From Desulfobacterales bacterium (GTDB taxonomy: Bacteria > Desulfobacterota > Desulfobacteria > Desulfobacterales > C00003060), in assembly GCA_023129535.1 (NCBI GenBank), contig JAGMBW010000040.1, positions 1 through 51,625 of the forward strand: a DNA stretch of 51,625 bases. Direction: 5' to 3'. Under the pieces are notes generated by a model. That model had not been told where the DNA came from and made no database searches. It saw only the letters and a program-made list of their open reading frames with translations. The translations under genes were made by a program, and so were the position numbers. Shown piece by piece: positions 5,166 through 43,859 of this stretch (position 1 is the stretch's first letter; every line of letters starts with the position of its first letter).

Positions 5166-5369
5166 GCAAAGCGCAGAGCGCATAGAGCATAGCGCAAAGC
5201 GCATAGAGCAGAGCGCATAGAGCAAAGCGCAAAGCGCAGAGCGCATAGAGCATAGAGCAAAGCGCAGAGCGCATAGAGCGAAGCGAAAGAACAAAGAATT
5301 CCGACGCCATGCGCTATGCGTAAAATAACGAATAACGAATAACGGATAACGAATAACGGATAACGGATA
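5166..5369. repeat. About 17 copies of 7-mer GCANAGM (5166-5284), short reverse arm CGCYATG (5305-5320), then an RATAACG array (5324-5369)
   Basis: Read directly between pilS and lysS. Confidence 0.95.
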
Positions 5370-5376: not shown

Positions 5377-6855
5377 ATGGATGAAACGAGTGAAGTAATC
5401 CGCCAGCGACATGAGAAGGCAAGGGCGCTGGCTGATCAGGATATTGAGCTTTATCCCAACGACTTCAAGGTGTCACACACGGTTGATGGACTAAAAAACT
5501 ACATTCATCACCACGCAGGGGCCGTGGACAGCGGGGCTGTCTTTTCCATGGCAGGCCGCATAACGGGGCTCAGGTGTTTTGGAAAGGCGACCTTCATTCA
5601 TTTCAGAGATTATACAGGACAGTTTCAGGCCTACATAAAACAAGACGGGATTGGCAAGGAGGCATACGCCTTATTCAAACAGTTTGATGTTGGCGACTTT
5701 ATTGGCATTAAAGGGAATGTGTTTCAGACCAGGACCGGTGAATGGACCGTTTTGGCCAAGGAGATTCGACTCCTTTGCAAGGCTATCAGGCCTCTTCCCG
5801 AGAAGTTCCATGGATTGAGGGATCCAGAAAAACGTTACCGTCAAAGATACCTTGATCTCATCATGAACCCGAATGTTCGCGACATCTTTATCAAGAGGGC
5901 TCAGATCATTCAAGCCTTCCGGGATTTTCTCTTGGGGCGAGGCTTCTTGGAGGTGGAGACACCTATGATGCAACCCATACCTGGGGGGGCTGAGGCAACC
6001 CCTTTCAACACCTTCCACGATGCCCTGGGGATGGAGCTTTTTTTACGGATTGCACCGGAGCTTTACCTGAAGCGATTAGTGATAGGGGGATTTGATCGAG
6101 TCTTTGAAATTAATCGCAGTTTTAGAAACGAGGGGATTTCAACTCAACACAATCCCGAGTTTACCATGTTGGAGTTCTATCAAGCTTACGCGACCCATAA
6201 GGACCTCATGGTCCTGACCGAGGAGATGTTTAGGTTCGTGACGCGGCAGGTTTTGGGACGGACGCATTTCACGTATCAGGGGAACACGATTGATATGACC
6301 GGGGCGTGGCGTCGGTTAACGCTGCTAAATGCTTTGAGCGAACTGGGCGGCATTGAAGCTTCCATGTTGGATGATCGACATCGTTTACTCGATTTTGCCA
6401 GATCAGAAGGGATTGAGATTAGAAAAACAAGGCGAGTTGGCAAGATCCTGACGAAACTATTTGATGTGTTGGTAGAACCAAAGCTCATTGAACCAACGTT
6501 TGTTGTGGGCTATCCTGTGGAGATTTCACCCCTTGCCAGGAGGAGCAGTTCAGACTCTAACATGACTGAGCGATTTGAGCTCTTTATTGGAGGGCGGGAG
6601 ATTGCTAACGGGTTTTCGGAACTAAACGATCCGGTTGACCAGAAAAGGCGCTTCCTGGATCAAGTCGCAGACAGAGAGGCTGGTGAGCAAGAAGCTCACT
6701 GTATGGATGAAGATTACGTCATGGCACTGGAATACGGGATGCCTCCGACAGCGGGCGAAGGTGTTGGGATTGACCGATTTGTGATGTTGTTGACCAATGC
6801 GGTCTCTATTCGTGAAGTGATCCTCTTTCCACAGTTGAAGAACATTGGTCATTAG
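5377..6855 (+). CDS. lysS: Lysine--tRNA ligase (class II)
   Basis: RYRQRYLDL, LRIAPELYLKRL, FRNEG, HNPEF and YGMPPTAGEGVGIDR motifs. Confidence 0.97.
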   Translation: MDETSEVIRQRHEKARALADQDIELYPNDFKVSHTVDGLKNYIHHHAGAVDSGAVFSMAGRITGLRCFGKATFIHFRDYTGQFQAYIKQDGIGKEAYALFKQFDVGDFIGIKGNVFQTRTGEWTVLAKEIRLLCKAIRPLPEKFHGLRDPEKRYRQRYLDLIMNPNVRDIFIKRAQIIQAFRDFLLGRGFLEVETPMMQPIPGGAEATPFNTFHDALGMELFLRIAPELYLKRLVIGGFDRVFEINRSFRNEGISTQHNPEFTMLEFYQAYATHKDLMVLTEEMFRFVTRQVLGRTHFTYQGNTIDMTGAWRRLTLLNALSELGGIEASMLDDRHRLLDFARSEGIEIRKTRRVGKILTKLFDVLVEPKLIEPTFVVGYPVEISPLARRSSSDSNMTERFELFIGGREIANGFSELNDPVDQKRRFLDQVADREAGEQEAHCMDEDYVMALEYGMPPTAGEGVGIDRFVMLLTNAVSIREVILFPQLKNIGH

Positions 6856-6997
6856 TCATTGGTGAATACTGGTAATTGGAGTATTGGAGTGATGGAGTAC
6901 TGGAGTGATGGGTTTAGAGGAACAGAAAAAACAATTTTTACCGCTTTTACCAGCCACTACTCCAGTACTCCAGTACTCCAATACTCCATTACTCCAT
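6843..6997. repeat. TTRGTCA stub over the lysS stop, then inverted element TGGAGTNN (6877-6912) / 46-bp core / NNACTCCA (6954-6997)
   Basis: Read directly; the core is homologous to 9051-9096 in inverted orientation. Confidence 0.95.
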
Positions 6998-7072
6998 CTG
7001 AATGGCATGAATCAATCGCCACCGAAAGATCTATAATCTTAATGAATTGTAGAATCTACGAGACATCGAGTT

Positions 7073-8302
7073 ATGTCATTTGAAGTCTTTGTCGGTCTTC
7101 GATATCTTCGGGCCAGACGAAAGCAGGCTTTTATTTCGGTTATCACATTCATTTCCATCGCAGGGGTGATGCTTGGAGTAATGGCTATGATGGTAGTACT
7201 GGCGGTGATGACCGGGTTCGGAGCCGACATCAAGTCCAAGATACTGGGTGCAAATGCCCATATTAGGGTCATGAGCCTCACTGGCAAGTTAGACAAACAT
7301 GATGAGGTCATGACAAGGATTGAGGCCGTGGAGGGTGTGGAAGCCACAGCGCCTTTTATCTACAGCCAGGTCATGCTGCGTTGTGGTTCCCGTGTTTCCG
7401 GGGCAATCTTGAGAGGGATTGATCCTTCGCGGGCCGGACGGGTCGTAGAGCTGGAAAAGAGTGTGAAGGACACAGACTTGCGGGCTTTGGGGGGCCCGGA
7501 TGTGCCACCCGGTATCATTCTGGGAAAGGAGCTTTCCCGGTTATTGATGGCCTTCACAGGAGACGAAGTCTACGTGGTGTCCCCCGTCGGTGGTAGCCTG
7601 ACACCCATGGGAGCACGCATACCCTATATGAAGAAGTTCAGGGTTGTGGGCCTTTTTGATTCAGGCATGTACGACTATGACACATCTTTTGCTTACGTTT
7701 CCATTGAGTCGGCCCGGCAGATTCTAAGACTCGGGCAGTCGGTTCATGGCATAGAGGTTAAGGTGGATGACATTTATAGTGTTACTAAGATCTCAAGGTC
7801 TGTACTCGATCGTCTCGGTACTGGTTATTGGACACAGGACTGGATGGAGATGAACAAGAATTTTTTCTCGGCCTTGAAACTGGAAAAGATCGTGATGTTT
7901 ATCATCCTGGTCTTGATTATTCTGGTAGCCGCCTTCAATATCATTAGTACCTTGATCATGATGGTCATGGAGAAAACCAAAGATATTGCTATCCTAAAAT
8001 CTATGGGTGCCACGAGTAAAAGCGTCATGAAGATTTTTATGCTGGACGGTCTTGTCATAGGCGTTGTAGGCACCATCTTCGGAATCATGGGAGGGAGCGT
8101 GCTTTGTTTCTTGTTGAAGCGTTACGAATTCGTGAAGCTTCCGAGCGATGTTTACTATATTTCTACGCTTCCGGTGAGGGTGCAGGTTTTCGACGTGGCC
8201 CTGATAGCCCTGTCTGCTATAGCTATCAGCTTTTTGGCTACACTCTATCCTTCCTATCAGGCCTCCAGATTGGACCCTGCGGCAGCCATCAGATATGAAT
8301 AG
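7073..8302 (+). CDS. lolE: Lipoprotein-releasing ABC transporter permease LolC/E
   Basis: RYLRARRK N-terminus, VMTGF, AAFNIISTL, IAILKSMGA and LYPS...LDP motifs. Confidence 0.92.
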   Translation: MSFEVFVGLRYLRARRKQAFISVITFISIAGVMLGVMAMMVVLAVMTGFGADIKSKILGANAHIRVMSLTGKLDKHDEVMTRIEAVEGVEATAPFIYSQVMLRCGSRVSGAILRGIDPSRAGRVVELEKSVKDTDLRALGGPDVPPGIILGKELSRLLMAFTGDEVYVVSPVGGSLTPMGARIPYMKKFRVVGLFDSGMYDYDTSFAYVSIESARQILRLGQSVHGIEVKVDDIYSVTKISRSVLDRLGTGYWTQDWMEMNKNFFSALKLEKIVMFIILVLIILVAAFNIISTLIMMVMEKTKDIAILKSMGATSKSVMKIFMLDGLVIGVVGTIFGIMGGSVLCFLLKRYEFVKLPSDVYYISTLPVRVQVFDVALIALSAIAISFLATLYPSYQASRLDPAAAIRYE

Positions 8303-8984
8303 CCAGCAGCCATTGATAAGTCTGAGAGATGTCAGGAAATCATTTATTACCAATGGTAATCGCCTGGATGTGCTGCAAGGTGTGGACCTCGACATTTATG
8401 AGGGTGAGATGGTCGCTATTGCGGGGGCTTCCGGTGTGGGCAAGTCAACCCTTCTCCATGTGCTGGGTACTCTGGAACGACCAGACCATGGCGAGGTCCT
8501 TTATCAGGGAGAACGAGTTTTCACTTACGATGAGCAAAGGCTTGCCTCTTTTCGCAATGAGACCATCGGTTTTGTGTTTCAATTTCACCACCTGCTGCCA
8601 GAATTCAACGCCCTGGAAAACACTATGATGCCTGCCTTGATTAAGGGTATGAATCCCAAAGAGGCGTGTGAGCTGGCCGAAGCGATCTTAACCTGGGTGG
8701 GCCTGAAGGATCGCCTGAGACATCATGTGGGGAAACTGTCAGGGGGAGAGCAGCAGAGGGTGGCTGTGGCCAGGTCTCTGGTATTGAAACCATCCATCCT
8801 GTTGGCGGATGAGCCCACTGGTAATCTGGATGTCAGGACTGGTGAGTCGATACATGATCTTTTGGTCTCATTGAACCGTGATGAGGGCATTACAGCGGTA
8901 GTCGTTACCCACAATATGAGGTTAGCTGAGAAGTTATCCCGCAGGGTGACACTGGTAGACGGAAAGGTAGTGGGAGTCGATTAA
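8295..8984 (+). CDS. lolD: Lipoprotein-releasing ABC transporter ATPase LolD
   Basis: GASGVGKS, FVFQFHHLL, LSGGEQQR and DEPTGNLD; overlaps lolE. Confidence 0.93.
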   Translation: MNSQQPLISLRDVRKSFITNGNRLDVLQGVDLDIYEGEMVAIAGASGVGKSTLLHVLGTLERPDHGEVLYQGERVFTYDEQRLASFRNETIGFVFQFHHLLPEFNALENTMMPALIKGMNPKEACELAEAILTWVGLKDRLRHHVGKLSGGEQQRVAVARSLVLKPSILLADEPTGNLDVRTGESIHDLLVSLNRDEGITAVVVTHNMRLAEKLSRRVTLVDGKVVGVD

Positions 8985-8985
8985 A

Positions 8986-9130
8986 TGGAGTGTTGGAGTA
9001 CTGGAGTGTTGGAGTACTGGAGTGTTGGAGTACTGGAGTGTTGGAGTACTGGATGGTAAAAGCGGGGAAAATTATTCTTGTTATTGCTCTAAACCCATTA
9101 CTCCATTACTTCATTACTCCATTACTCCAA
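8986..9130. repeat. Inverted element (TGGAGTGT TGGAGTAC)x4 / 46-bp core / ATTACTCC array
   Basis: Read directly between lolD and bamA. Confidence 0.95.
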
Positions 9131-9156
9131 TCGTGAGCGGAGCGAACAAAGTTCAG

Positions 9157-11808
9157 ATGACTATGTTTAAGAGGTGCTTTTTTTTTGTGTTGATGCTGCT
9201 CTCTTTTCGGGTCAGCGCAATGGCTCAGGAAGGGACTCGTGTCGTTATTGTTCCATTTGAGGTTCACGCACCGGAAAGGCTCGACGATTTGAGGGAGAAT
9301 ATCCAGGATCTTATTGAAAAACAACTAAGAGACCAGGGCATCGTGGTTATGGCGTCTGGCGAACCCCTTGAAGGGGTGGTTAGCATCGAGGAAGTCGGCC
9401 TGAGCCGTCTGCGGACATTGGGACTCAGTCTGGGGGCTGATTTTGTGATATGGGGGACTTTTACAAAGATTGGTCGTCACTTCAGTTTGGATGTCAAGGT
9501 GGTGGAATCTTACGGGGATGCTCCTGCAGAACCCGTGTTTGCGGAAGGTGAGTGCCTTGAAGCCCTGCCCGATTCTGTTCAAAGACTGGCCAGGGACCTT
9601 GGGATCAAGATGCTCAGGCGGGAAAAGGTGGCAGAGGTCATCATCACAGGAAACAAACGGATAGAATCTGAAGCGATCAAGAAAATCCTGAAGACCAGGA
9701 AGGGAGATGTCTATTTAGCAAGACATCTCCGGGATGATATAAAGTCAATCTATAAAATGGGCTATTTTGGTGACGTTCGTGTAGAGGCGTCCAGCACCCC
9801 AAAAGGGAAGGAGGTGAGTTTTCGGGTTACTGAAAACGAAACCATTCGCAACATCAGAATCAAGGGGAACAGAAAGTTCGAGGATAAAAAAATCAAAGAG
9901 GTCATCAGTGTCAGGCCAGGTTCCATCTTGAATATAAAGAAGCTTCAAGGCGACATGAGGCAGATTGAGAATCTTTACAAAGAAAAAGGATATCATCAGG
10001 TCAAGGTGGCCTATGAGACAAACGCTGTGTCAGAAAGTCGCGCTGACCTTGATTTTATCATCAAAGAGGGTGAAAAGGTAATAATCAGGGCCATTCGTTT
10101 CGAAGGGAACAATGCCTTTGAGAGTAAGACATTGAAGAAATTGATGAAGACTGAGGAGAAAGGTTTCTTCTCGTGGCTTACCTCGTCAGGAGATTTAGAT
10201 CGTGAAGTCTTGAGCCAGGACGTGTCTAAGATAGCTGCATACTATCATAATCACGGTTACATTGAGGCAAAAATGGCTGAGCCGGAGCTGACATATGAGG
10301 GAAAATGGATTTATGTGAAGATCAAGATAGATGAAGGGCCTCAGTTCAAGGTTGGCAAGGTAGACATTGAAGGAGATTTGATTGGGCCAAAAAGCGAATT
10401 GCTAAAAGAGATGAAGATTATCAGGGAAAAGGTTTACAATCGTGAACTTATACGAGAAGACATTTTGGTGTTACGAGACATGTACTCAGATGCAGGGCAT
10501 GCCTATTCAGATATTTCTCCACGCATTGACCTGGACCGCGAGAAACTTACGGCTAACGTGACATATCTGATTAACAAAGGGCCGCTGGTTTATTTCGAAA
10601 AGATCATTATAACGGGCAATACCAAAACGCGTGATAAGGTCATACGCAGGGAGCTAATGGTGTATGAGCAGGAATTGTTCAGCGGAAAGCGCTTGAAGCG
10701 TGGTGCACGAAATCTTTACCGTCTCGATTTCTTTGAAGACATCAAGGTAAATACCACAAAGGGCAGCGCTGACGACAAGATGATCCTCAAGGTCGATGTC
10801 ACTGAAAAACTGACAGGCGCCTTTAGCTTTGGCGGCGGATACAGTTCTGTGGACAATGTATTTGTCATGGCTTCGATCTCACAGCGAAACCTGTTTGGGC
10901 GTGGCCAGATCCTGAACTTGAGGGCCCAACTGGGCGGAAGAACCACGCGCTTTACGCTGAGCTTCACTGAGCCATGGCTCTTTGATATTCCCCTGTCGGC
11001 AGGTTTTGATCTCTACAACACGGTCTGGGACTATGACACCTATGACAAGGACAGCATTGGGGGCACCCTTCGGTTTGGGTATCCCGTTCTTGATTACACC
11101 CGGGTATACCTTTCCTATAACTATGACCGGTCTGACATCCAACTTCTTGAGCCTCACGACGCCTCCGAGTGGATCAAGGATATGCAGGGGAAAAACGTTG
11201 GACACACTTTGACTGCCACTATACGCCGTGATTCAAGAGACCGGGTTTTCAACCCTACCGAAGGCTCGGATAACAGCTTTACGATCAAGCATGCAGGAAC
11301 ACCTTTTGGTGGAGATATTGGGTATACCAAGTATATTGTGGATTCTGGATGGTATATTCCCCTTTTCTGGGATACAGTTGGCATGTTACATGGCCGCGGT
11401 GGTTTTATTCACGAAGACACGGTGGGCAAGGTGCCTCTGTGGGAGCGTTTTTACATGGGCGGCCTGGGGTCGATACGGGGTTATGAGTGGCGAGATATCA
11501 GTCCCAGAGATCCTCCGGTGACAGGTGATCAGATAGGGGGAAACAAGATGGTGCAATTTAATGTGGAGTTCATATTTCCCCTTGTAAAAAAGGCGGGTTT
11601 GATAGGACTCCTTTTCTACGATACAGGAAACGTCTATGACAGTGGAGAAAATATCAATGTCGGTGACTTCAGAAAGAGCATAGGGTATGGTATTCGATGG
11701 TATTCGCCCATAGGACCCATTCGTTTGGAATATGGCTACATTCTGGATGATAAAGAGGGGCGGAAAGGCGAAGGGGGCTGGGAGTTCACTATGGGGGCGG
11801 CATTTTAG
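9157..11808 (+). CDS. bamA: Outer membrane protein assembly factor BamA with an extra N-terminal domain
   Basis: Signal peptide, POTRA repeats (GNKRIE, GNTKTRDKVIRRE), SIRGY, WYSPIGP and terminal Phe; the ORF-track start at 9022 is repeat-derived, real ATG at 9157 or 9163. Confidence 0.93.
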   Translation: MTMFKRCFFFVLMLLSFRVSAMAQEGTRVVIVPFEVHAPERLDDLRENIQDLIEKQLRDQGIVVMASGEPLEGVVSIEEVGLSRLRTLGLSLGADFVIWGTFTKIGRHFSLDVKVVESYGDAPAEPVFAEGECLEALPDSVQRLARDLGIKMLRREKVAEVIITGNKRIESEAIKKILKTRKGDVYLARHLRDDIKSIYKMGYFGDVRVEASSTPKGKEVSFRVTENETIRNIRIKGNRKFEDKKIKEVISVRPGSILNIKKLQGDMRQIENLYKEKGYHQVKVAYETNAVSESRADLDFIIKEGEKVIIRAIRFEGNNAFESKTLKKLMKTEEKGFFSWLTSSGDLDREVLSQDVSKIAAYYHNHGYIEAKMAEPELTYEGKWIYVKIKIDEGPQFKVGKVDIEGDLIGPKSELLKEMKIIREKVYNRELIREDILVLRDMYSDAGHAYSDISPRIDLDREKLTANVTYLINKGPLVYFEKIIITGNTKTRDKVIRRELMVYEQELFSGKRLKRGARNLYRLDFFEDIKVNTTKGSADDKMILKVDVTEKLTGAFSFGGGYSSVDNVFVMASISQRNLFGRGQILNLRAQLGGRTTRFTLSFTEPWLFDIPLSAGFDLYNTVWDYDTYDKDSIGGTLRFGYPVLDYTRVYLSYNYDRSDIQLLEPHDASEWIKDMQGKNVGHTLTATIRRDSRDRVFNPTEGSDNSFTIKHAGTPFGGDIGYTKYIVDSGWYIPLFWDTVGMLHGRGGFIHEDTVGKVPLWERFYMGGLGSIRGYEWRDISPRDPPVTGDQIGGNKMVQFNVEFIFPLVKKAGLIGLLFYDTGNVYDSGENINVGDFRKSIGYGIRWYSPIGPIRLEYGYILDDKEGRKGEGGWEFTMGAAF

Positions 11809-11990
11809 TCATTAGTCATTAGTCATTGGTCATTGGTCATTGGTCATTGGTCAGTGGGGAGTCGGGAGTATGCAGTATGCAGTAACCTTCGATTTCGGAT
11901 TTCGGATTTAAAAGAAGCTGAAATCAATAACCAGTATCAAGTATCCAGCAACCAGCAACAAATGACAAATGACTAATGACAAATGACCAA
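11805..11990. repeat. Composite array: TTRGTCA x7, GGGAGTN/TGCAGTA, TTCGGAT, CCAGYAN, AATGACN
   Basis: Read directly; the outer arms are reverse complements and the bamA TAG is in the first unit. Confidence 0.93.
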
Positions 11991-12005
11991 GAGAGGAGGT
12001 TCTTC

Positions 12006-12606: not shown

Positions 12607-12818
12607 CACGAAAACACGAAATAGGGAAAGCACGAAAGTAACATCTCAATCCATTTACCCCAAGTTATTGAGAAGATACGCACGAAAGACCTAACGACCT
12701 AAAGATAAAGCCCTTTTTCGTGCTTTCGTACTTTGCGGCGTTCGCCTTGAGAACAGTACGTGCTTTCGTGATTGGAGTTTAGTGAACGAATAACGAATAA
12801 CGAATAACGAATAACGAA
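12607..12818. repeat. Inverted element CACGAAAN (12607-12688) / NTTTCGTG (12716-12770) followed by an AATAACG array (12785-12818)
   Basis: Read directly; same family as 46793-47293. Confidence 0.92.
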
Positions 12819-15093: not shown

Positions 15094-15297
15094 ATTTATC
15101 ATTTATCATTTATCATCTATCACTGGTTATTAGTGTCAATAGCCGATACCTGATACCCGATATTTTCTGCTCATATCCGGCATCAGGCATCTGGCATCAG
15201 TCGACTGGAAGTAAACCAATGACCAATGACCAACGACTAATAATAAATGATAAATGACCAATGATAAATGACCAATGACCAATGACCAATGACTAAC
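15094..15297. repeat. Nested inverted arrays: outer ATTTATC / AATGAYN, inner CYGATAC / ATCNGGC
   Basis: Read directly; the lpxI ATG lies in the last outer unit. Confidence 0.95.
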
Positions 15298-17373: not shown

Positions 17374-18536
17374 GGGATCAACCTATCAACGGAAAAGCTC
17401 TGGATAGAAAACGAAAAATCATGATCATCGCCGGAGAGGCCTCTGGTGACCTTCACGGGGCAAACCTGGTGAGAGCCATGCGGTCGCTCAACCCGGACCT
17501 TAGTTTCTTTGGCATAGGTGGCAATGCGCTTGGAGAAGCTGGAGTTCAGATAAAGGTTGATAATTCAAAAATAGCTGTTGTCGGACTTTCGGAGGCCCTT
17601 TCAAAGCTTAAAATCCTTCTCAGTGCCCTTCGGATTGCCAAGGAAAACCTGAAAAGAATCCGCCCCGATCTACTTATTGTCATCGATTTCCCGGACTTTA
17701 ATCTGCGCGTCGCCACGGTGGCTAAGAAACTGGGTATCCCGGTCATGTACTACATTAGTCCTCAGATATGGGCATGGCGTACCGGGAGGGTGAAGAAGAT
17801 AAAGAAGGTGGTCGATCATATGGTGGTTATCTTCCCCTTCGAGGTGGATTTTTATAAGAAGCGGAACGTACCGGTCACCTTTGTGGGGCACCCCTTACTG
17901 GACAGCATGCGACCCAGGGGAACTCATGAGAAAGCTGAGGACCTGAGGGGCAATGGTTTTCTCGTAGGCCTTCTGCCTGGTAGTCGGAACGAGGAGGTCA
18001 CACGCCTTCTTCCCACGATGGTAAAGACGGCAGCGATTCTCTCGGAACGGATTCCAGGTATCCGCTTTGCCATACCTGCGGCCTCTTCAGTGGACAGGAC
18101 CCTGGTAGAGACAATCGCACAGGAAGGAGCCGCAAAGTTTTTGGTTCTGTCAGACAGGCTTCGAGACATATTGGATGAGGCCACACTGCTCATAACAGCT
18201 TCGGGGACCGTTACCCTGGAGGCAGCCATAGCGGGTACGCCGATGATCATTGTGTACAAGGTGTCGGGTCTCAGTTACTGGGTTGGAAAGCGTTTGATTC
18301 GGGTAAAACATATTGGTCTGGCCAACCTGGTAGCCGGAAGATCGATTGTGCCAGAGCTGATTCAGCACGAAGTCTCAGCAGAAAAGATTGCCCATCAGGC
18401 ATTACGGATACTTAGAGACGAAAACAAGCTTGCTGAGATGCGGCACGAGCTGCGTCGTGTTGCACAGAGCCTGGGCCCTGCAGGAGCCTCGAAGCGGGCT
18501 GCTGAGGTGGCGATGAGGTTGCTTTCGAGGCAATGA
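17370..18536 (+). CDS. lpxB: Lipid-A-disaccharide synthase
   Basis: AGEASGDLHG, IDFPDFN, PQIWAWR, FVGHPL, LPGSR and SGTVTLE. Confidence 0.96.
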   Translation: MRDQPINGKALDRKRKIMIIAGEASGDLHGANLVRAMRSLNPDLSFFGIGGNALGEAGVQIKVDNSKIAVVGLSEALSKLKILLSALRIAKENLKRIRPDLLIVIDFPDFNLRVATVAKKLGIPVMYYISPQIWAWRTGRVKKIKKVVDHMVVIFPFEVDFYKKRNVPVTFVGHPLLDSMRPRGTHEKAEDLRGNGFLVGLLPGSRNEEVTRLLPTMVKTAAILSERIPGIRFAIPAASSVDRTLVETIAQEGAAKFLVLSDRLRDILDEATLLITASGTVTLEAAIAGTPMIIVYKVSGLSYWVGKRLIRVKHIGLANLVAGRSIVPELIQHEVSAEKIAHQALRILRDENKLAEMRHELRRVAQSLGPAGASKRAAEVAMRLLSRQ

Positions 18537-18618
18537 ATTGAATATTGAATATTGATAATTGATAATTGAAAGGCAATGAGGAATCAATCTTCAATGGTCA
18601 ATAGACAATCGTCAATCG
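18537..18618. repeat. Inverted element ATTGANN (18537-18570) / NNTCAAT (18584-18618)
   Basis: Read directly; the right arm lies inside the 5' end of the next ORF. Confidence 0.9.
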
Positions 18619-19289: not shown

Positions 19290-19330
19290 TGGAGTGATGG
19301 AGTGATGGTACTCCATTACTCCAACACTCC
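19290..19330. repeat. Collapsed TGGAGTNN / NNACTCCA element with no core
   Basis: tggagtgatggagtgatggtactccattactccaacactcc. Confidence 0.9.
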
Positions 19331-19354
19331 TTTTTTCCCTACTTTGTGTACGGT

Positions 19355-23598: not shown

Positions 23599-23735
23599 AG
23601 TGATGGAGTACTGGAGTGATGGATTGATAGAACCTTGCTTGCTGCCCACTACTCCAATACTCCATTACTCCATCACTCCGTCAACGATTACAACTTTAGG
23701 CACTTTAGTTCACTTTAGGCACTTTAGCTCACTTT
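23599..23735. repeat. TGGAGTNN / NNACTCCA element (23599-23679) followed by an orphan CACTTTAG array (23693-23735)
   Basis: Read directly. Confidence 0.92.
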
Positions 23736-23745: not shown

Positions 23746-26190
23746 ATGATCCTCTTATACAATATTTTGTTCTTGCTCGGAAGCCTTGTAATGCTCCCTT
23801 TCTTTGTGGTAAAGGCCCTCACGCTTGAAAAGAGACGAACAACGGTCCTGAAGAGGCTGTATCCAGGCTTCCAGATGCCCCAATTCCCGGGAAAGCCGAT
23901 ATGGATACACACCGTGTCAGTTGGAGAGGTTCTGTCGGCCACCACCTTGATCAAGGGGATCAAAAAGAAATATCCCGATCGGGCTCTTGTCTGTTCGGTT
24001 TCAACCCAGAGCGGCTACCAGATAGCCACCCAATCTTTGTCCAAAGAGGCCGATTTCGTTTTTTTCTTTCCTTATGATTTTTTGTGGGCGGTCAAGGACG
24101 TTTTTCGTAGAATTGACCCTTCCCTTTTTCTTCTTGTGGAGACCGACCTGTGGCCCAATTTCCTGCATGAAATGGCAAAGTTCCGTGTGCCTGCCATTTT
24201 TGTAAACGGCAGATTCTCACCCCGTTCCTACAGGAGATACAAGCGGTTCTCTTTTTTCACAAAGCCACTGGTTTCAAATTTTGCCTGTTGTTGCATGCAG
24301 ACAGAGATAGACGCCAGGCGGATCATATCCCTTGGCGCGGCCAAAGAGAGGGTTGAGGTCACTGGAAACATCAAGTTTGACCAGCCCTTGATGCCTGCAT
24401 GCGAGGAGAATATCAATGAGCTAAAGGCCTCGATGAGAATTGGAGGGGATGCGAGGATATTCCTGGCCGGTAGTACCCATGAGGGGGAAGAGGCAATTCT
24501 CTTGCGTTGCTTTGAAGCCCTGAGGGAAGGTTTTCCTGATCTGGTTCTGGTGATGGCACCGAGAGATCCCGGACGTGCCTCTTCCGTTCAACATATGTTT
24601 AAGAAGGCTGGCCTGGTGGCCCCTTTGAGGACCGAATTAGACAAGATGGATGCTGGCATCACACCCGATGCCATCATTGTGGATACCATGGGGGAACTGA
24701 GGCGGCTATACGCTATTGCTGATGTGGTCTACGTGGGAAAGAGCCTTGTCAATCTCGGCGGGCAAAACCCACTCGAGCCTGCTGTTTTCAAAAAGCCTAT
24801 TCTCTTCGGGCCGTATATGTTTAATTTTGAGCTGATCGCTGAAACGCTTCTCCGAGAAGGTGGGGCTGTTCAGGTGGCAAACGGGGATGGTCTCCTGGAG
24901 GAAGTTGGGGCCCTCCTGCGCGACACCGATCGTTCTCATCTGATGGGACAGAAAGCCTATGAGGTTTTCTGTATGAACCGGGGCGCGGTTAACAGGGTGT
25001 TAGGAGTTGTTGAAAGATTTCTGAGCTGCAATCCGCAATCCCTGCCCGCCAGTCGCCTTCGCTCCAGGCGATGGCAGGCGGGCGCAATCCGTAATGCCAT
25101 ACAAGAGGTGATGATCAGGGGAGATATAACTGATCCAGCGTTTTCATCACCCCTTGAATGTGTGCTTTACGCGTGTTCAAAGATTTACCAGATGGCGGTG
25201 GCAGTTAGAGTTCGCTTGTATGAAAAAGGTGTTCTCAGGTCAAAAAGGCTGCCATGTAAAGTGATATCTATTGGCAATATGACAGTAGGAGGGACGGGAA
25301 AGACCCCCATGGTCCACTACGTGGCAAATTTGTTGAAAGGTCTTGGTCTTGAGGTAGCAATCATCAGCCGGGGCTATAGGGGGTATGCGCAGTACGCAGG
25401 GGGGATCGTTTCAGACGGAAATAAGATTGTCATGGGACCCCGGGCCTCGGGTGATGAGCCCCATCTCATGGCATCAAAACTAAAAGGGATTCCTGTGCTG
25501 GTTGGCAAAGATCGTTATCAGGCCGGGAGACTGGCTATCAGCAGGTTCGGCTCATCGGTGTTGGTTCTTGATGATGGCTTTCAGCACCTCTCCTTAAGAC
25601 GGGACTTGAATTTGTTGCTTTTGGATAGCACGTGTCCCCTTGGCAACGGACATTGTATTCCAAGGGGCACACTCCGGGAGCCAGCGGAAGAGCTGAAGCG
25701 TGCCAGCGCCCTCATCCTGACCCGATGGACGAATGAGAGCGATCTGGCTCAGGTGAGCTCCATGATCGAGGCCCATGCCCGCGGACGTCCGATTTTCAAA
25801 TGCACGCACGTCTGTGACAGTCTGTTTGTGGCCGGACAAAAAGAGTCCCCCGGTTTAGCGATGCTAAAGAGGCGAAGGCTTTTTTTGTTTTCCGGTATTG
25901 CTCGAAATGAGAGTTTCCGTGAAACCATTTCCGGACTTGAAGGCGATATCGTTGGCTTCCTTGAGTTTCCGGACCATCATCGGTATTCTCAACACGATCT
26001 GAGGATTATCTGGAAAAGGGCCAGGGAGTTGAACGTGGACAGCATTATCACCACCGAGAAGGATTACGTGAATATTCTGACTGAGATTCCATCAACGCCG
26101 CAACTCCTCGTCCTGACCATTGGGATTTCCTTTGGCGATGATGCGGAACCCTTTGACAGCTATATCAAAAACTGGGCATTGTGCCCTTAG
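23746..26190 (+). CDS. waaA-lpxK: Fused Kdo transferase (WaaA) and tetraacyldisaccharide 4'-kinase (LpxK)
   Basis: N-half WIHTVSVGE, GSTHEGEE and GGQNPLEP; C-half GNMTVGGTGKTP, SRGY, LDDGFQH, GTLREP, FPDHH and TTEKD; single frame. Confidence 0.9.
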   Translation: MILLYNILFLLGSLVMLPFFVVKALTLEKRRTTVLKRLYPGFQMPQFPGKPIWIHTVSVGEVLSATTLIKGIKKKYPDRALVCSVSTQSGYQIATQSLSKEADFVFFFPYDFLWAVKDVFRRIDPSLFLLVETDLWPNFLHEMAKFRVPAIFVNGRFSPRSYRRYKRFSFFTKPLVSNFACCCMQTEIDARRIISLGAAKERVEVTGNIKFDQPLMPACEENINELKASMRIGGDARIFLAGSTHEGEEAILLRCFEALREGFPDLVLVMAPRDPGRASSVQHMFKKAGLVAPLRTELDKMDAGITPDAIIVDTMGELRRLYAIADVVYVGKSLVNLGGQNPLEPAVFKKPILFGPYMFNFELIAETLLREGGAVQVANGDGLLEEVGALLRDTDRSHLMGQKAYEVFCMNRGAVNRVLGVVERFLSCNPQSLPASRLRSRRWQAGAIRNAIQEVMIRGDITDPAFSSPLECVLYACSKIYQMAVAVRVRLYEKGVLRSKRLPCKVISIGNMTVGGTGKTPMVHYVANLLKGLGLEVAIISRGYRGYAQYAGGIVSDGNKIVMGPRASGDEPHLMASKLKGIPVLVGKDRYQAGRLAISRFGSSVLVLDDGFQHLSLRRDLNLLLLDSTCPLGNGHCIPRGTLREPAEELKRASALILTRWTNESDLAQVSSMIEAHARGRPIFKCTHVCDSLFVAGQKESPGLAMLKRRRLFLFSGIARNESFRETISGLEGDIVGFLEFPDHHRYSQHDLRIIWKRARELNVDSIITTEKDYVNILTEIPSTPQLLVLTIGISFGDDAEPFDSYIKNWALCP

Positions 26191-26220
26191 CCGGCCGAAC
26201 GGACTCAACACGAATTAAAC

Positions 26221-26254
26221 CCATCACTCCAGTACTCCATTGCTCCAATGCTCC
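26221..26254. repeat. Orphan NNACTCCA right arm
   Basis: ccatcactccagtactccattgctccaatgctcc, preceded by taaacc as at 9090-9096. Confidence 0.85.
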
Positions 26255-26283
26255 GGTAGGGCGGAGCCCCGGACGTTCGCCTG

Positions 26284-28612: not shown

Positions 28613-28786
28613 CCCAAACTTCGCAAGACTCTCAAGATGTCATTGCGAGGAGCGGAGCGACGTGGCAATCTCGGTACGCCACAAAGACGGCGGACTTTCA
28701 GCACCTGGAGATTGCTTCGTCCACCTGCGGTGGACTCGCAATGACAGGATTGGTCATGTTTTTCAAATGACCTTGCGAAATTCGGG
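28613..28786. mobile_element. MITE/REP-like element with outer IR cccaaacttcgcaag / cttgcgaaattcggg and inner tgtcattgcgag / ctcgcaatgaca palindrome
   Basis: Outer IR 13/15, inner IR 12/12; the inner part is related to 45325-45359 and 48485-48619. Confidence 0.7.
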
Positions 28787-30254: not shown

Positions 30255-30632
30255 GTGAACAAAGAACCGACATATGATTACGATAAAGAAGCAGATGTGT
30301 TGTATATCTCCTTTTCACCGGGAGAGAAAGCAACAACAGCGGTTGAATTGAATGATAACATATTATTACGTTTTAACCGTGCCGAGAAGCGTGCAATTGG
30401 TTTAACCCTCATGGATTTTTCAGTGTTGGTGCAATTAACCAATTTGGGGCCACGTAGCTTTCCCTTAAGTGGGTTAAGTGAACTGGAAACGGAGTGGCAA
30501 GATACAGTTATTGAAATTATCACTAAGCCACGGGTAAACCAAATTTTGAAAGTCTCGGTTTATACCCCATCTTTGGCCGAAACCGTACCGATTGCCCAGG
30601 TCGAGAAACTGCCAACTTCTTTAGCAGCATGA
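30255..30632 (+). CDS. DUF2283 domain protein
   Basis: YDKEADVLYISF...AIGLTL signature. Confidence 0.75.
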   Translation: MNKEPTYDYDKEADVLYISFSPGEKATTAVELNDNILLRFNRAEKRAIGLTLMDFSVLVQLTNLGPRSFPLSGLSELETEWQDTVIEIITKPRVNQILKVSVYTPSLAETVPIAQVEKLPTSLAA

Positions 30633-30976
30633 TTTCAATGAGTCTTTGGTGAAAGGTGGACTTCCTCTGACATTCTTGTGCTCTGAATTTCGACTATTGT
30701 AAACGTTCTGTAAGTTGTACATGTTAGCCCAGCAACAGATTTCTCGCTCTGCTCGAAATGACAGGAATGGATGGTTTTCGTTCAGCCACTATAGCCCTTT
30801 TTATATGACATGATACTATATTTCGTATGTGCTATCCAAGAAACCCCTATATGCAGTGCATCTGCATGTTTATTTGAGGTATCAACTCATATGAAAAACT
30901 CTATAGGTAAATCCTGTCTAACCTATAAGGATTAAAGACGTATGGAGCTAAGAGTAAAGGATTAAGGTGAATTATT

Positions 30977-31189
30977 ATGACGAAGTCGCAAGAATGGATT
31001 ACAGAAAATTTTGAGTCTCTCGTTTCCAAATACGGGGGGAAATACATTGGTGTTCTCGATGAAGAGGTGGTATCAGTTGCTTTAACCCCTCGGGAAGTCC
31101 TGGAAAACGCCAAGAAGGCACACAAAGAAGAGGAGGGAATTTCTCTTTTAAAAGTTCCCACAGAGGAAGAGTTGATATGCATTTTGTAG
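30977..31189 (+). CDS. Small DUF5678-like protein
   Basis: AGGTGA RBS and W..ENFESLVSKYGGKYIGV pattern; overlaps the protease gene. Confidence 0.65.
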   Translation: MTKSQEWITENFESLVSKYGGKYIGVLDEEVVSVALTPREVLENAKKAHKEEEGISLLKVPTEEELICIL

Positions 31190-31572
31190 AGTTCAAGTAT
31201 GCCCTTCATAGGCGGAGAGATGTTCCTCTCATCCCAGTTGGCCTCAGGACGAAAGGAAAGTGGAAAGAAGTTTGGGCCTATGTCGATTCTGGCTGTTTCT
31301 ATAGCATTTTTGATGATAAGGTTGCTGATATATTAGATATTAACCTCACAGCGGGCAAGAAAGTTTTGGCAGTAGTTGGTGATGGTAGCTTTATTCCAAT
31401 CTATTTGCATACGGTGGGTATAAGGATAGGAGAGGATGAATTTGGCATGAAGATAGGCTTTTCCTCAAAATTAGGGGTGGGTTTCAACCTACTTGGGATG
31501 GATATTTTTGACCGATATCGAGTGACATTTGATAACAGAGCGAGGAAAGTTATATTCGAAAGTTACACGTGA
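31177..31572 (+). CDS. Retropepsin-like aspartyl protease
   Basis: AYVDSG catalytic motif and LLGMD motif. Confidence 0.75.
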   Translation: MHFVEFKYALHRRRDVPLIPVGLRTKGKWKEVWAYVDSGCFYSIFDDKVADILDINLTAGKKVLAVVGDGSFIPIYLHTVGIRIGEDEFGMKIGFSSKLGVGFNLLGMDIFDRYRVTFDNRARKVIFESYT

Positions 31573-31602
31573 TGATCTTGCTGACATTGGAGAAGACAAA
31601 TA

Positions 31603-31869
31603 ATGCCGAAAACAAGAAAATGCCCAGAGTGTAAGGGGATAGTAAAGGAAGGGCAGACTCAGCTTAGTTATGAGTTGGAGGGTATTAATATTATCGTGAA
31701 AAACATTCCAGCAAATATTTGTGAAAAGTGTAGGCAGGCTTTTATCACCGGACATGTTGCGGAAGAAGTGAATCGTTTGGTTAACAGGCTGAGTGAGGAC
31801 ATCAATAGTTTTGCTAAAACCCAGCCTCAGATTGGCAAAAGGCAAAGGGAGGTTGCCATTGCAATATAA
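31603..31869 (+). CDS. YgiT-type zinc finger protein (MqsA N-terminal-like)
   Basis: CPEC...IIVKNIPANICEKC. Confidence 0.8.
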   Translation: MPKTRKCPECKGIVKEGQTQLSYELEGINIIVKNIPANICEKCRQAFITGHVAEEVNRLVNRLSEDINSFAKTQPQIGKRQREVAIAI

Positions 31870-32308
31870 GAAAACATAGCTCCGCTTCAGTACGTCCGCT
31901 ATGGGCACGAACTCTTTGTCAGGGATCAATCTGCAAAAGTGGAATTTGAGACGACTGTCCCGTACAGGTACTTCGATATGAAACCATTCTTGTCTTTGTA
32001 CTATTCATTATTAGAGGAGAAGATAAGAAGCTCAGGCTGATGAAAATACTGAGAAAAGAAAGGATATTAGAATACCTTGACAATCTCCAGCGCCAATTGT
32101 CGGACCTGGAAGCTATGAAGGTGCCTGGGCCGGAAAAAAACTGTTAAGTCGTGAAGAAAGGTGAGTTCGGTCAGGAGAAACGAAACCCGACTTTGAATGT
32201 GACCAAATACTTTAACCTGAAAACGAGAATCTACTCCAGTGGAATGATAGAGTTTCCTTTTGAAGGTCACGCTCGTAATCCCTGAGGATAAGGGCCTGAT
32301 GATGCTGG

Positions 32309-33019
32309 CTATAAGTGTCGGTATTTCTTAGGTTCGCCTCTAAGATCTTTTTTTAGTTTCCGGTAAGCCCGCTTGATCCAGCGTGACACTTTCTCCACCA
32401 CTGTTCTGTTGTAGTATTGCCTGTCTTCATCGACTATATTTTCGAACTTTCGGTTATACTTCAACTTCACCCAGGCGTTGAAATCAAATTTCCTTGCAAG
32501 GTTATAGAGATAGCGATTTAGAGGTGCAAAACCAGGTTTACTGACGATAGCTACGCCAAAATCGATCATACAGGGCGCCCGTCCTTTGACGACGAGAAGG
32601 TTGTCCTTTTTCTTGAGATCGCCATGCGCCACACCCGCCTTGTGCAGCCCTTTGATCAGGTTCAACAGTTTTTCGAAAAACATGCCGCGATCCGTAATCC
32701 GGGATCTTCGTAGCGGAACCCCGTTGATGCATTCAAGCACCAGGTAGCGCCCATCCAGAATGCCGTAACAGCGCGGCACACCGCGTACTTCAGATAACCT
32801 GGAGTAGGCCCTGTACTCGTTGCGCAACATCACCCGCCGGATGAGCCCGCCTAACCCCCACCCCACAGGAGCCTTGAGTATTAGACGCTGACCTTTGCCT
32901 TTATACAGATAGACATGGCCCTGACTACCGCGGCTAAGAATGTTCGATTTGGTTTTGACGCTGCTCCTGACCCACTTAAGGAGCTCGATTTCGGTAAGGT
33001 TATCCAGCTTCTTCAACAT
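32309..33019 (-). CDS. Kdo/WaaP/RIO-like kinase
   Basis: HGDLKKKDNLL and IDFG; start reassigned to the ATG at 33019 to avoid overlap with the next gene. Confidence 0.75.
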   Translation of the reverse strand: MLKKLDNLTEIELLKWVRSSVKTKSNILSRGSQGHVYLYKGKGQRLILKAPVGWGLGGLIRRVMLRNEYRAYSRLSEVRGVPRCYGILDGRYLVLECINGVPLRRSRITDRGMFFEKLLNLIKGLHKAGVAHGDLKKKDNLLVVKGRAPCMIDFGVAIVSKPGFAPLNRYLYNLARKFDFNAWVKLKYNRKFENIVDEDRQYYNRTVVEKVSRWIKRAYRKLKKDLRGEPKKYRHL

Positions 33020-33035
33020 CGACGGCACGGCGGGT

Positions 33036-33608
33036 TCAATGCAGCCCCATCCAGAGGAAGTAGAGCCAAGACAGTAAAAATAGGGCGATAATGGGCTCAC
33101 CGTTATCCCGCAGGCTTTGCATGAACGACCAACTGCCACGTTGGCCGGGCTGATAGGGGGTAAGGCGTGGAATAAGCCCCTGGGTCTCTTTGCGCCATTG
33201 TTCCCACTCCTCTTTAAATCTGCGATGAAGCTTTTCATCTTCTCGACGGATGGCAGGAGGATAAAAGGCGAGCAACATCCCTATCAACAGTGGGAGACTC
33301 CACCATAAGCTGGAGGCAAGGGCAAAGCCAAATCCCAACGTGAGGTTGCCCACATATAGAGGGTGCCTGACATAGGCGTAAGGCCCGTCGGTGGCAAGGA
33401 TCTTGTTCTTTTTAATATGCCCTGATGCCCACAGGCGCGCTGCAATACCCAGGATAACCAGCGCTGCACCAGCAACGAACAACATTTCCTTTGGTTCGCC
33501 TGCAACACTGGCCAGGATGATAAAGGCGATGCCAAGGAATTGGCGGAAGCGTTCCCGGTGGTATCGGAGATCGTGAAGAAATCGTTGCAACCCGAAAGCT
33601 GTTGCCAT
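33036..33608 (-). CDS. Isoprenylcysteine carboxylmethyltransferase / phospholipid methyltransferase family membrane protein
   Basis: LATDGPYAYVRHPLYVG motif and TM helices. Confidence 0.85.
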   Translation of the reverse strand: MATAFGLQRFLHDLRYHRERFRQFLGIAFIILASVAGEPKEMLFVAGAALVILGIAARLWASGHIKKNKILATDGPYAYVRHPLYVGNLTLGFGFALASSLWWSLPLLIGMLLAFYPPAIRREDEKLHRRFKEEWEQWRKETQGLIPRLTPYQPGQRGSWSFMQSLRDNGEPIIALFLLSWLYFLWMGLH

Positions 33609-33627
33609 TGATTCAGTCCTCCTCTGT

Positions 33628-34335
33628 TCACCCCACTTCGTAATCCTTCCGAAGCCCTGCGCACATCATGTCGCAGAGCATCTCCGGCAACCGATGCTTG
33701 ATTACAGCACGTCGCCAACGACTAAGGTAATGATCTCGTAACTTATTTTTATTGTGCCGAGGAAGACGGGCCTTGTCAAAATCAACGAGAAATACCCGGT
33801 CACGACTGTCCACTAACACATTGCCAGGATGCAAATCGACATGAAAGATATTGTTATTGATAAGAGTGGAGACCTGATCGACGACCTTTTTCATCGCAAT
33901 GTGAGCATGTTCCTCATCTGCACAACTGAGTTCAGCAAGTGTTTGTTTCTGTTTAATCTCTCTGGTTACCAGCCACGCTTTATAGAACAAACTGCCCTGG
34001 GAAGCATAGGCAATCGGCTCGGGGGCATTTACACCGAGGCTCCTTACTTTCTGCAATATCTCATACTCAATCTGACAACGCGTTTTGCCCCACTTCAGGT
34101 ACCTTCGTTTGACCAGGTATCGAATAAGCCCTCCACGGGTATAATATTTGATGACTACCGATCCTACCCCTTCAAGCTGAGCAATAGTAACCGAGCTTCT
34201 TCCGCCAAGGACCGAATCAACAGTATTTGTAGGGGTATTAAAGAGTCTGATGAGTTGCTCCAATTGTCGGGCAGTAAGATCAGATGACGATCCGAAATGA
34301 TACGAATCATATATTTTGGTTAGTGCCTTACTCAT
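33628..34335 (-). CDS. Kdo kinase-like LPS kinase
   Basis: LGGR, KYYTRGG, HVDLHPGNVL and VDFD. Confidence 0.78.
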   Translation of the reverse strand: MSKALTKIYDSYHFGSSSDLTARQLEQLIRLFNTPTNTVDSVLGGRSSVTIAQLEGVGSVVIKYYTRGGLIRYLVKRRYLKWGKTRCQIEYEILQKVRSLGVNAPEPIAYASQGSLFYKAWLVTREIKQKQTLAELSCADEEHAHIAMKKVVDQVSTLINNNIFHVDLHPGNVLVDSRDRVFLVDFDKARLPRHNKNKLRDHYLSRWRRAVIKHRLPEMLCDMMCAGLRKDYEVG

Positions 34336-35339
34336 TGAATATCTAGCAATTTCTCAGTCGCGCTTATTACTTCAAGATGTGAAAGTTCCTTCATGCAAGC
34401 CTCAGTCCCTGTCGGGCACGTTTTTCCCCCGTGTCGGCTGCAAGGCCTGCAAGGAAGGTCCTTCTCCACCACAACTGCCTTATTCTTCCAGGGATAGAAG
34501 CCAAATTGCGGGGATGTCGCACAAAAAATCGCAACGTTCGGAACCTTAAATGCAGAAGCAATATGAAGGACCATGCTGTCGTTACACACAACCAGCCTTG
34601 CATTTTTTATGATGTACATCGTGTCTGGAATACTCGTTTTTCCTGCAAAATTGCTGACTTCAAGTCCCTGAGCCACCATGGCGTTTACCTTTTCATCTGA
34701 CGGCGCTCCCAGGAGAACGACCGCAAAGCCTCGTTTGAGCAAGAACTGAGCTACCTCACGATACCCCTTCCAGTGCCACATCTTGGTTTTCCAAACACTT
34801 CCGGGCACAAGTACCACATAACCACCAGGCTGAGGCAACATTCTGTTAACCTCATTGTCAAGCTCGTTTCTCAAAGGCGGGAATAAACGCAGCTCCGCTT
34901 CCAGTGACTCGAGAGGAACCTCCCCGGAAAGCAATGACAGGTTGCGAACCACGTCATGGTCGCCAGAATTTCGTTCTCGTATCTCATGATAGAGAAAGTT
35001 AAGCTTGGCATTCGCAAATCCGATGCGAACAGGAATGCCGCAAAGCCAGAGCAAAACCGATGTGCGGGGAGAACGATGAAGCGAATACACCCTGTCAAAC
35101 CTCATCGCCATGATTCGACGTTTCATTCGCAACAGACCGGAGAATCCTGCATCCTTCCCTCGTTTATTGTATGTAAGAACTCCAGCAAGAAGTGGATCGC
35201 GCATCACCAGCGACGAGGCAAGTGGCGTTGTCATCATCCAGAGCTCAGCATCGGGATAAATCTTTTTGATGCCAGAGATAACAGGAGTAGAAAGAATTGT
35301 ATCTCCCAGGAAACTTGTCTGAACGAGAAGTATCTTCAT
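34332..35339 (-). CDS. Glycosyltransferase family 9 (heptosyltransferase-like)
   Basis: QTSFLGD, PGSVWKTK, NDS..LH and CRPCSRHG. Confidence 0.88.
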   Translation of the reverse strand: MKILLVQTSFLGDTILSTPVISGIKKIYPDAELWMMTTPLASSLVMRDPLLAGVLTYNKRGKDAGFSGLLRMKRRIMAMRFDRVYSLHRSPRTSVLLWLCGIPVRIGFANAKLNFLYHEIRERNSGDHDVVRNLSLLSGEVPLESLEAELRLFPPLRNELDNEVNRMLPQPGGYVVLVPGSVWKTKMWHWKGYREVAQFLLKRGFAVVLLGAPSDEKVNAMVAQGLEVSNFAGKTSIPDTMYIIKNARLVVCNDSMVLHIASAFKVPNVAIFCATSPQFGFYPWKNKAVVVEKDLPCRPCSRHGGKTCPTGTEACMKELSHLEVISATEKLLDIQ

Positions 35340-35364
35340 TTTGTGAGCAGGTTATCCATCCATT

Positions 35365-36441: not shown

Positions 36442-36596
36442 ATCAGTATGTAATTGAGCTTGTCGCAAATACAGTCGTCGAGGAGTTTCTTGAATGTCTC
36501 CATCTCCATCAATTGAATCTTGCTTGTCAGCTTCTCGCGGGGGCAGATCGTGCAGCGCGCTGGGACGATCCCGTAGCATTTCGGGAGTTTGTTCAT
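36438..36596 (-). pseudogene. 52-aa chimeric remnant: KdsB-like N-terminus joined to a radical-SAM-like fragment
   Basis: AAGGAG RBS; MNKLPKCYGIVPAR-CTICPREKLTSKIQLMEMETFKKLLDDCICDKLNYILI; stop overlaps the next ATG (ATGA). Confidence 0.55.
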
Positions 36597-36643
36597 TTAT
36601 GTACTGCTCCTTGGCTTTTTTCAGTTGTAGAAATCCCGAAACG

Positions 36644-38128: not shown

Positions 38129-38152
38129 GTCAATCTGACACTCGCCGGTACT

Positions 38153-40909: not shown

Positions 40910-40986
40910 GGATACGCTTCGTCGTCACCACCAATAATCGCATTAATGATAAATGAAATGATAAGAATTCCCTTTTGGGTCATATG

Positions 40987-43841: not shown

Positions 43842-43859
43842 GACTGGTGTCTATGTAGC

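Follow-up and report, generated by a model that had tools for sequence, protein, structure and literature searches.

Two inverted copies of a hairpin repeat built from tandem octamers around a lolC/E-lolD-like gene pair in a Desulfobacterales contig

Background

The contig JAGMBW010000040.1 of a Desulfobacterales bacterium (assembly GCA_023129535.1), analysed here from position 1 to position 51,625 and referred to as the window, carries two hairpins made of arrays of the hexamer TGGAGT, one on each side of a pair of genes resembling lolC/E and lolD. We call them El1 (6869-6996) and El2 (8986-9129). An earlier note on this DNA reported that the two share a 46-nt core in opposite orientations, and read this as evidence for a dispersed element, made of arms and core, that inserts in either orientation rather than arising locally by slippage. 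The locus thus raises the question of whether the two hairpins are copies of such an element, and of how two copies separated by 2.1 kb came to face in opposite directions. We conclude that El1 and El2 are probably diverged copies of one small family of non-coding palindromic repeats, which combines a stem of 8-nt units with an asymmetric 52-nt loop that holds a family-specific core. Part of the reasoning that first suggested a dispersed element does not survive, and the alternatives are weighed below where the evidence on each of them is given.

Results and discussion

Common descent of El1 and El2

The reverse complement of 6910-6955 aligns with 9051-9096 at 37 of 46 positions without a gap, the count given in the earlier note. 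In direct orientation the same segments agree at 17 of 46 positions, and the runner-up 46-mer for the El2 core, on either strand of the whole window, reaches 26/46. We scored dinucleotide-preserving shuffles in both orientations and at nine offsets (+-4), and 0 of 20000 reached 37 (maximum 28, mean 17.8), which bears out the observation of two TGGAGT elements with a shared core in opposite orientations. The similarity takes in the arms as well, with 6875-6996 and 9010-9131 being 84% complementary over 122 nt in a gap-free alignment, and it ends where the arms end, the sequences outside them being unrelated and impossible to align. This register of arms and loop shows, at the level of the alignment, that El1 and El2 share common descent as whole units. 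The two cores have diverged by 20%, and their outer parts are more conserved than the middle, of which the 26 nt taken by themselves match at 18 of 26 positions, a value equalled by 111 of 20000 shuffles.

Architecture and folding of the elements

Each element is an imperfect hairpin of 130-145 nt with an 8-nt unit of consensus TGGAGTRN on the 5' arm and the complement on the 3' arm (Table 1). Folded whole as single strands, El1 has a predicted energy of -64.7 kcal/mol (z -9.9 against shuffles) and El2 of -62.3 kcal/mol (z -7.0), and the cores folded alone show no significant structure (z -1.3 for El1 and -0.95 for El2). Arm copy numbers are unequal, as had been claimed, with 4 left and 5 right TGGAGT units in El1 and 8 left and 4 right in El2. 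The 16-mers of the El2 left arm are 100% identical over their 4.2 copies, which points to a recent local expansion, and the length of an arm therefore changes locally. To judge from these perfect repeats, which show slippage in the arms, copy number changes by local slippage, so that the choice between a dispersed element and slippage was a false one.

El1 sits in the lysS-lolC/E spacer, which extends from the stop codon at 6855 to the start codon at 7073, and El2 in the lolD-bamA spacer, from the stop codon at 8984 to the ATG at 9157. The left arm of El2 begins 1 nt past the lolD stop codon, and 27 nt separate the end of its right arm from the bamA ATG. The description of the elements as bracketing lolE-lolD holds for the positions; for the genes themselves, the LolC/E match lies above its cutoff and LolD is only the best family, below cutoff.

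Table 1. Positions in the window of the two elements, the genes between them, the other TGGAGT loci and the A-rich heptamer arrays
Feature	Position	Strand	Description
El1 left arm	6869..6906	+	degenerate outer unit (CTGGTAAT), then 4 tandem NNTGGAGT units; pairs with the right arm in the fold
El1 loop, 52 nt	6907..6958	-	holds core 6910-6955, on the minus strand relative to El2
El1 right arm	6959..6996	+	5 tandem ACTCCANN units, inverted copy of the left arm
lolC/E-like permease gene	7073-8302	+	TIGR02212, 401 bits, above cutoff
lolD-like ATPase gene	8295-8984	+	LolD is the best family, score below curated cutoff
El2 left arm	8986..9047	+	8 units, equal to 4.2 perfect copies of the 16-mer TGGAGTGTTGGAGTAC
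El2 loop, 52 nt	9048..9099	+	holds core 9051-9096
El2 right arm	9100..9129	+	4 ACTCCANN units, including one TGAAGT variant
Third TGGAGT hairpin	19290..19331	+	2+3 units, 6-nt loop, no core, TTTTTT after; -29 kcal/mol, z -7.5
Fourth TGGAGT hairpin	23599..23680	+	3+4 units, 25-nt loop
Single ACTCCA arm	26215..26258	+	3-4 units, arm-tip motif TAAACCC ahead, no partner arm
A-rich heptamer array	5324-5369		AATAACG
A-rich heptamer array	11958-11987		ACAAATG
A-rich heptamer array	12785-12818		AACGAAT
A-rich heptamer array	15215-15293		ACCAATG
A-rich heptamer array	18536-18571		AATTGAA
A-rich heptamer array	48713-48757		AATGACA

A separate observation concerns the reading frame across El2. A GTG codon at 9022 opens a frame that runs through the element into bamA (9022-9156 in the window) and gives a product of 928 aa as against 883, and gene callers could wrongly extend bamA by way of this codon.

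Homologous cores outside the window

Further copies of the core were found at the level of peptides. We built a profile (alignment A1) from both elements, read in the frame in which the core encodes GKSGKNCFFCSSKPITP, and searched it against 1.84 billion representative proteins. The search returned 566 proteins at E<=0.001, almost all of them spurious open reading frames (ORFs) that run through the arm repeats (WSxGVLEY). Among the best 150 of these 566, the ORFs P0110 and P0112 carry a clear core (KSGKN...SS.KPITP) between arm-derived peptides, and on the 14-residue middle of the core they score 38 and 33, with the top shuffled control at 32. Three others, P0143 (31), P0136 (26) and P0121 (24), are probable only once their placement between arms is counted. 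A second search, with a seven-sequence alignment (A2) and proteins of 18-104 aa, scored 108 candidates and returned 8, of which four are new proteins with a core-like middle (P0151, P0152, P0153 and P0154) and one, P0155, has a different middle; the matches of this search are each recorded on 1 to 19 contigs. Overall, about nine clusters of spurious ORFs have TGGAGT-type arms around a homologous core, two of them clear and the rest probable, and the peptide copies fall into three core subfamilies that are distinguished by short insertions. Most of these copies represent separate loci, since their flanking peptides mostly differ. These peptide-level matches show a core family that extends beyond El1 and El2, between TGGAGT-type arms.

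The relationships among these copies bear on the possibility that one element arose from the other in a single local event of duplication and inversion, with the family otherwise confined to the two sites, an alternative that the earlier note had itself raised. The window does contain just two full cores in 51.6 kb, inverted and 2.1 kb apart, as such an event would leave them. That explanation is nevertheless contradicted by the homologous cores that lie between TGGAGT-type arms, with different flanks, at other loci in public (meta)genomes, and no flanking sequence was duplicated along with the elements. A parallel pair of inserts inside arrays of the window, described below, lies 34 kb apart. 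P0110 shares 68% identity with El1 and 65% with El2, and the two elements are about 65% identical to each other over the same stretch of A2 (22/34 residues, hand count); P0110 is as near to each element as they are to one another, which means that El1 and El2 did not arise by a recent local duplication to the exclusion of the other copies. We consider an origin of the pair by one local duplication-inversion highly improbable.

Two observations on the flanks of these copies stand apart from this argument. The flank of P0112 was compared with the antisense 3' end of lysS as a sign of orthology to El1, and the match was not accepted, being weak and gapped. Just outside the right arm of El2, the sequence atcgtgagcggagcgaac at 9130-9150 translates as IVSGAN. 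It is similar to PIAKRSGA, the peptide found past the right arm in P0110 and P0155, two ORFs whose loops differ from each other, and it may be part of an adjacent repeat family. Searches of plasmid and phage collections gave matches at chance level only (E 0.1-0.4).

Orientation, arm tips and transfer of the loop

The claim of a dispersed element thus keeps the whole-unit ancestry and, at the peptide level, the homologous cores elsewhere, and it loses two other arguments. Opposite orientation had been taken as evidence for insertion either way round, and this fails: it proves little, because arms that are inverted repeats allow recombination or gene conversion of the loop, which could be flipped or converted between them. 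The second argument was the reappearance of 'taaaccc', an end of the core, before the single arm at 26221. The motif is indeed present there, and 92% complementarity over 39 nt joins 6878-6916 to 26216-26254, but the motif is not a remnant of the core, because it belongs to an arm-tip grammar that recurs in unrelated genomes. This grammar was seen in a sample of public genomes, not a census, which comprises at least 121 loci that have three TGGAGT units; 120 of these loci were usable and are referred to here as the listed loci. In their 173 arrays, the sequence past the last TGGAGT unit continues as NNTGG in 80/173, and among the hexamers found there TGGGTT (AACCCA on the complementary strand) shares first place with 10/173. 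Both ends of the core, TGG(T)AAAAGC and TGGGTTTA, look like arm-tip motifs that unrelated genomes also have. TGGGTTTA itself turns up again in two other genomes (L057 and L073), and the end opposite it, TGGTAAAAGC, resembles the common arm tip TGGAAAAAGC.

That arms could move a loop suggests another history, in which TGGAGT hairpins were already resident and the core was copied in inverted form from one to the other by gene conversion or template switching, or the loop was flipped in place, all without transposition. Near-identical inverted-repeat arms at five loci within 20 kb provide homology for conversion in both senses; the gap between El1 and El2 is only 2.1 kb; in another genome two TGGAGT hairpins 0.8 kb apart have similar short loops (L066); and the window holds no target duplication and no transposase. 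Against these points, a core divergence of 20%, with El1 and El2 no closer to each other than to P0110, is unlike a recent local conversion, and core-bearing copies lie on many separate contigs. We regard loop transfer as a possible but rather doubtful origin of the pair, and since it is compatible with dispersal, it is partly a variant of descent from a dispersed family and not its opposite.

Weighing a dispersed palindromic family

If El1 and El2 are copies of a dispersed palindromic repeat, new copies would arise non-autonomously, either by transposition in trans, in the manner of miniature inverted-repeat transposable elements (MITEs) or REPINs, or by gene conversion, with the abundant identical arms providing the priming. 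Such conversion could, in addition, duplicate the loop or turn it over, in either orientation. Any effect of the element would come from the stem and not from the core, through a stable stem-loop at gene boundaries, which might act in RNA as a 3'-end barrier like that of repetitive extragenic palindromes (REPs) or as a partial terminator, or in DNA as a place where an architectural protein binds, a role suggested earlier for the Geobacter sites.

A number of results weigh against this reading. Full copies of the core number only two in the 51.6-kb window, and blastn-short and an nhmmer profile found no third copy there or in the at least 121 loci of other genomes. The outside copies are known as translated spurious ORFs alone, with the arms giving much of their scores, only P0110 and P0112 exceed all shuffled controls on the 14-residue middle, and some of the outside ORFs may be one site in related strains. 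By eye, no consistent target-site duplication accompanies the elements: El1 has TGAAT near both ends, not abutting them equally, and El2 and the hairpins at 19290 and 23599 have no duplication. No transposase was present among about 43 window ORFs scanned, and the occurrence of a dozen different unit families in 51 kb argues against a dedicated enzyme for each. A consensus scan also found no promoter, no terminator and no T-run in El1 or El2, and neither element has the G+C-rich stem, followed directly by a T-run, of an intrinsic terminator.

A different proposal is that the core has been kept as a functional site, bound by a protein or transcribed as a small RNA, and that its conservation is not the descent of a selfish repeat. 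The greater conservation of the outer parts of the core is in keeping with such a site, as is the proposal that paired octamer sites of Geobacter bind global regulators, in the passages that describe them (PMC2700814). The conserved ends are, on the other hand, the arm-tip motifs common to unrelated genomes, and in one co-directional gene cluster the core lies on opposite strands, so that any RNA would differ between the loci. The core also lacks significant structure, a match to an Rfam family and a promoter consensus. With Rfam 15 at the gathering score, the whole window yields a tRNA only, and a relaxed Rfam scan of 6800-9200 gave only sub-threshold matches to generic hairpin microRNA models. 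A role of the core as RNA is unlikely, because one locus carries it in sense and the other in antisense, it is unstructured alone and it has no Rfam family, and we hold selection on the core as a functional site, of whichever kind, to be very unlikely.

Repeat arrays across the window

All five TGGAGT loci of the window lie in spacers between co-directional genes. The third, at 19290-19337 with the following T-run, is a near-perfect hairpin between a DUF374 gene and an msbA-like gene, and it is the only TGGAGT locus of the window that resembles an intrinsic terminator. The loop of the fourth, at 23599, was considered as a deletion derivative of the core, and this was rejected as the alignment is unconvincing. 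The region of the single arm (26215-26258) has no significant structure (z 0.39).

The TGGAGT family belongs to a broader class of arrays of tandem 7- and 8-mers, often in inverted pairs, that fill intergenic spacers. Of the intergenic bases, about a dozen unit families of this kind account for 47% between 1 and 30.3 kb, for 2% between 30.3 and 45.1 kb and for 21% over the remainder of the window. The array-poor stretch (30301-45100) holds minus-strand kinase and glycosyltransferase genes of the lipopolysaccharide core and has a G+C content similar to the rest. Many of the arrays are nested inverted pairs that span an entire spacer, such as the bamA-skp spacer (11805-11992), which folds with -64.7 kcal/mol (z -7.4). 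A-rich heptamer arrays end at, or a few bases from, the start codons of the lysS, skp, lpxD, lpxI, DUF374 and xerC-like genes, and the stop codon before them is often followed by arrays complementary to these, with the result that the whole spacer folds as nested hairpins. Within TTTCGTG/CACGAAA arrays, a non-array insert of about 30 nt occurs at 12724-12773 and again at 46831-46880, 34 kb away and in opposite orientation, with 88% identity over 50 nt. By this comparison, it is a second "core inside array" pair in the window.

TGGAGT arrays in other genomes

By hand count, the record labels of the sample of at least 121 loci comprise about 37 of Desulfobacterota or 'Deltaproteobacteria', about 27 of Verrucomicrobiota, 11 of Bacteroidota and 5 of Planctomycetota, the remainder bearing more than ten further labels. 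Neighbouring arrays pair with strong polarity in the listed loci, as 39 convergent pairs (TGGAGT arm first, ACTCCA arm second) and 1 divergent pair. The unit has a purine at position 7 in 375/402 cases there and in 21/21 in the window, and other arrays of 7-10-mers lie near the TGGAGT arrays at 68/120 loci. Loops measure 52, 52, 6 and 25 nt in the window and from 6 to 225 nt in the listed loci. A comparison of window proteins with the listed loci by tblastn detected no orthologous loci.

Some of these loci were tried as comparisons and set aside. L009 and L022 share an 88-nt loop (98.9% identical), which is no clean test since the flanks are homologous as well, for 317 bp; L034 and L037 seem to be orthologous sites; and the match of L118 to 23599-23679 covers arms only. 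Open frames of at least 150 aa contain 29/72 of the other-genome arrays, a test too crude to use. An observation of another kind is a contig labelled Metamycoplasmataceae (L101; CBDHHR010000034.1, 8001-16000) with a kilobase-scale tandem array of TGGAGT-type octamers, put at 8 kb.

It is conceivable, and in our view unlikely, that all TGGAGTRN inverted arrays form one cross-phylum family of self-propagating hairpins, spread horizontally and handled by dedicated machinery that reads the unit in one sense only, with loops such as the 46-nt core as lineage-specific cargo. If true, this would account for the 39:1 polarity, for the conserved purine at position 7, which more than a dozen phylum-level labels have in common, and for the shared arm tips. 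The same TGGAGTRN unit and polarity in metagenome-assembled genomes labelled with many phyla would, if a common mechanism lies behind them, represent a neglected form of bacterial repeat dynamics, and the cross-phylum arm polarity is a more curious lead than El1 and El2 themselves.

Comparison with known repeat systems

The closest parallel comes from Geobacter metallireducens, which has 24 pairs of sites with four tandem octanucleotides GTTGCTYN; the two sites of a pair lie on opposite strands, and the distance between them varies (Aklujkar et al. 2009, PMC2700814). The passages of that paper concerned with these sites give three classes of 24, 21 and 8 pairs, the further units being TCTCCGTS(Y) (9-mers) and MTYCTGA (heptamers), and describe 3-5 tandem units of 7-9 nt that mostly adjoin genes. 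The sites are interpreted there as those of IHF/HU-type regulators, with ISGme8 and ISGme9 inserted at a fixed distance (PMC2700814). El1 and El2 resemble them, so far as these passages go, in their tandem units (4-8 units of 8 nt per arm) and in the pairing on opposite strands at variable distance, and the host lineage is related. The unit consensus is in contrast TGGAGTRN, which makes this the same architecture in a different family, and the shared loop sequence present in El1 and El2 is not among the features reported in those passages. In the texts that it returned, a literature search gave nothing on TGGAGT arrays or on tandem-octamer hairpin pairs apart from this paper (PMC2700814).

REPs, BIMEs and REPINs are extragenic palindromes, with inverted halves around a short spacer that form a hairpin, and are associated with RAYT transposases (Bertels and Rainey 2011, PMC3116915). 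In REPs, a palindrome of 20-40 bp ends in a GTAG or CGTC tag (Di Nocera et al. 2013, PMC3733652). As the relevant parts of these papers present them, they share with El1 and El2 a short, extragenic, dispersed and non-autonomous hairpin between co-directional genes. They differ in being single palindromes of 20-40 bp, whereas ours are tandem TGGAGTRN arrays, and the fixed GTAG/CGTC end is absent from the arms of El1 and El2. No RAYT gene occurs among the window ORFs.

MITEs have terminal inverted repeats and a short non-coding interior, form subfamilies that differ by internal insertions and deletions, and are found in either orientation. The arms of El1 and El2 likewise are inverted copies at the ends of the element that fold as hairpins; unlike the ends of MITEs, they are tandem arrays of variable length, and by eye neither element has a consistent target-site duplication.

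Heptamer arrays form another comparable group. Elhai et al. are said to have described, in 2008, cyanobacterial STRR heptamer arrays with embedded small dispersed repeats. TAACTGA heptamer repeats are known from 169 direct sets and one inverted set, with a proposed role in translation (MacGregor 2015, PMC4679880). Such arrays resemble those of the window, as far as the passages at hand describe them, in being intergenic tandem 7-mers of several families, patchy across phyla, with short unique sequences nested in them, and arrays just upstream of start codons are present in the window too. They differ in that they are mostly direct repeats of other units and not hairpin pairs.

As bacterial "junk" repeats, El1 and El2 are of an ordinary kind; what is unusual is their build, with stems consisting of tandem 8-base units. 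The class was noted in one genome paper of 2009 and has apparently gone unexplained since.

Genomic setting and use

The lolC/E-like and lolD-like genes run in the same direction as lysS and bamA and belong to a co-directional cluster for outer-membrane biogenesis, which comprises lysS, lolC/E, lolD, bamA, skp, lpxD, lpxI and lpxB and continues with an msbA-like ABC exporter, lptF, lptG, a kdtA-lpxK fusion and heptosyltransferases. At this locus the elements mean little, being two non-coding repeats in the spacers of a conserved cluster. Their practical value is as markers of strains, and they call for caution when genomes are assembled and genes predicted; public databases contain hundreds of spurious ORFs through such arms.

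Three minor features of the window were also recorded. The fusion gene (23746-26190) is one ORF of 814 aa that joins a Kdo transferase N-terminal domain to a complete LpxK kinase domain. A dispersed repeat of 98 nt, present at 45269-45366 and 48529-48626 (95% identical), has 35 of its nucleotides (GAGATTGCCACGTCGCTTCGCTCCTCGCAATGACA) repeated in inverted form at 28638-28672 (97% complementary) and forms a separate family that is not an array. Finally, a 52-nt tandem duplication (44 nt at 98% identity) at 669-764 is found within the GTCGAGTA array element upstream of the gene at 836.

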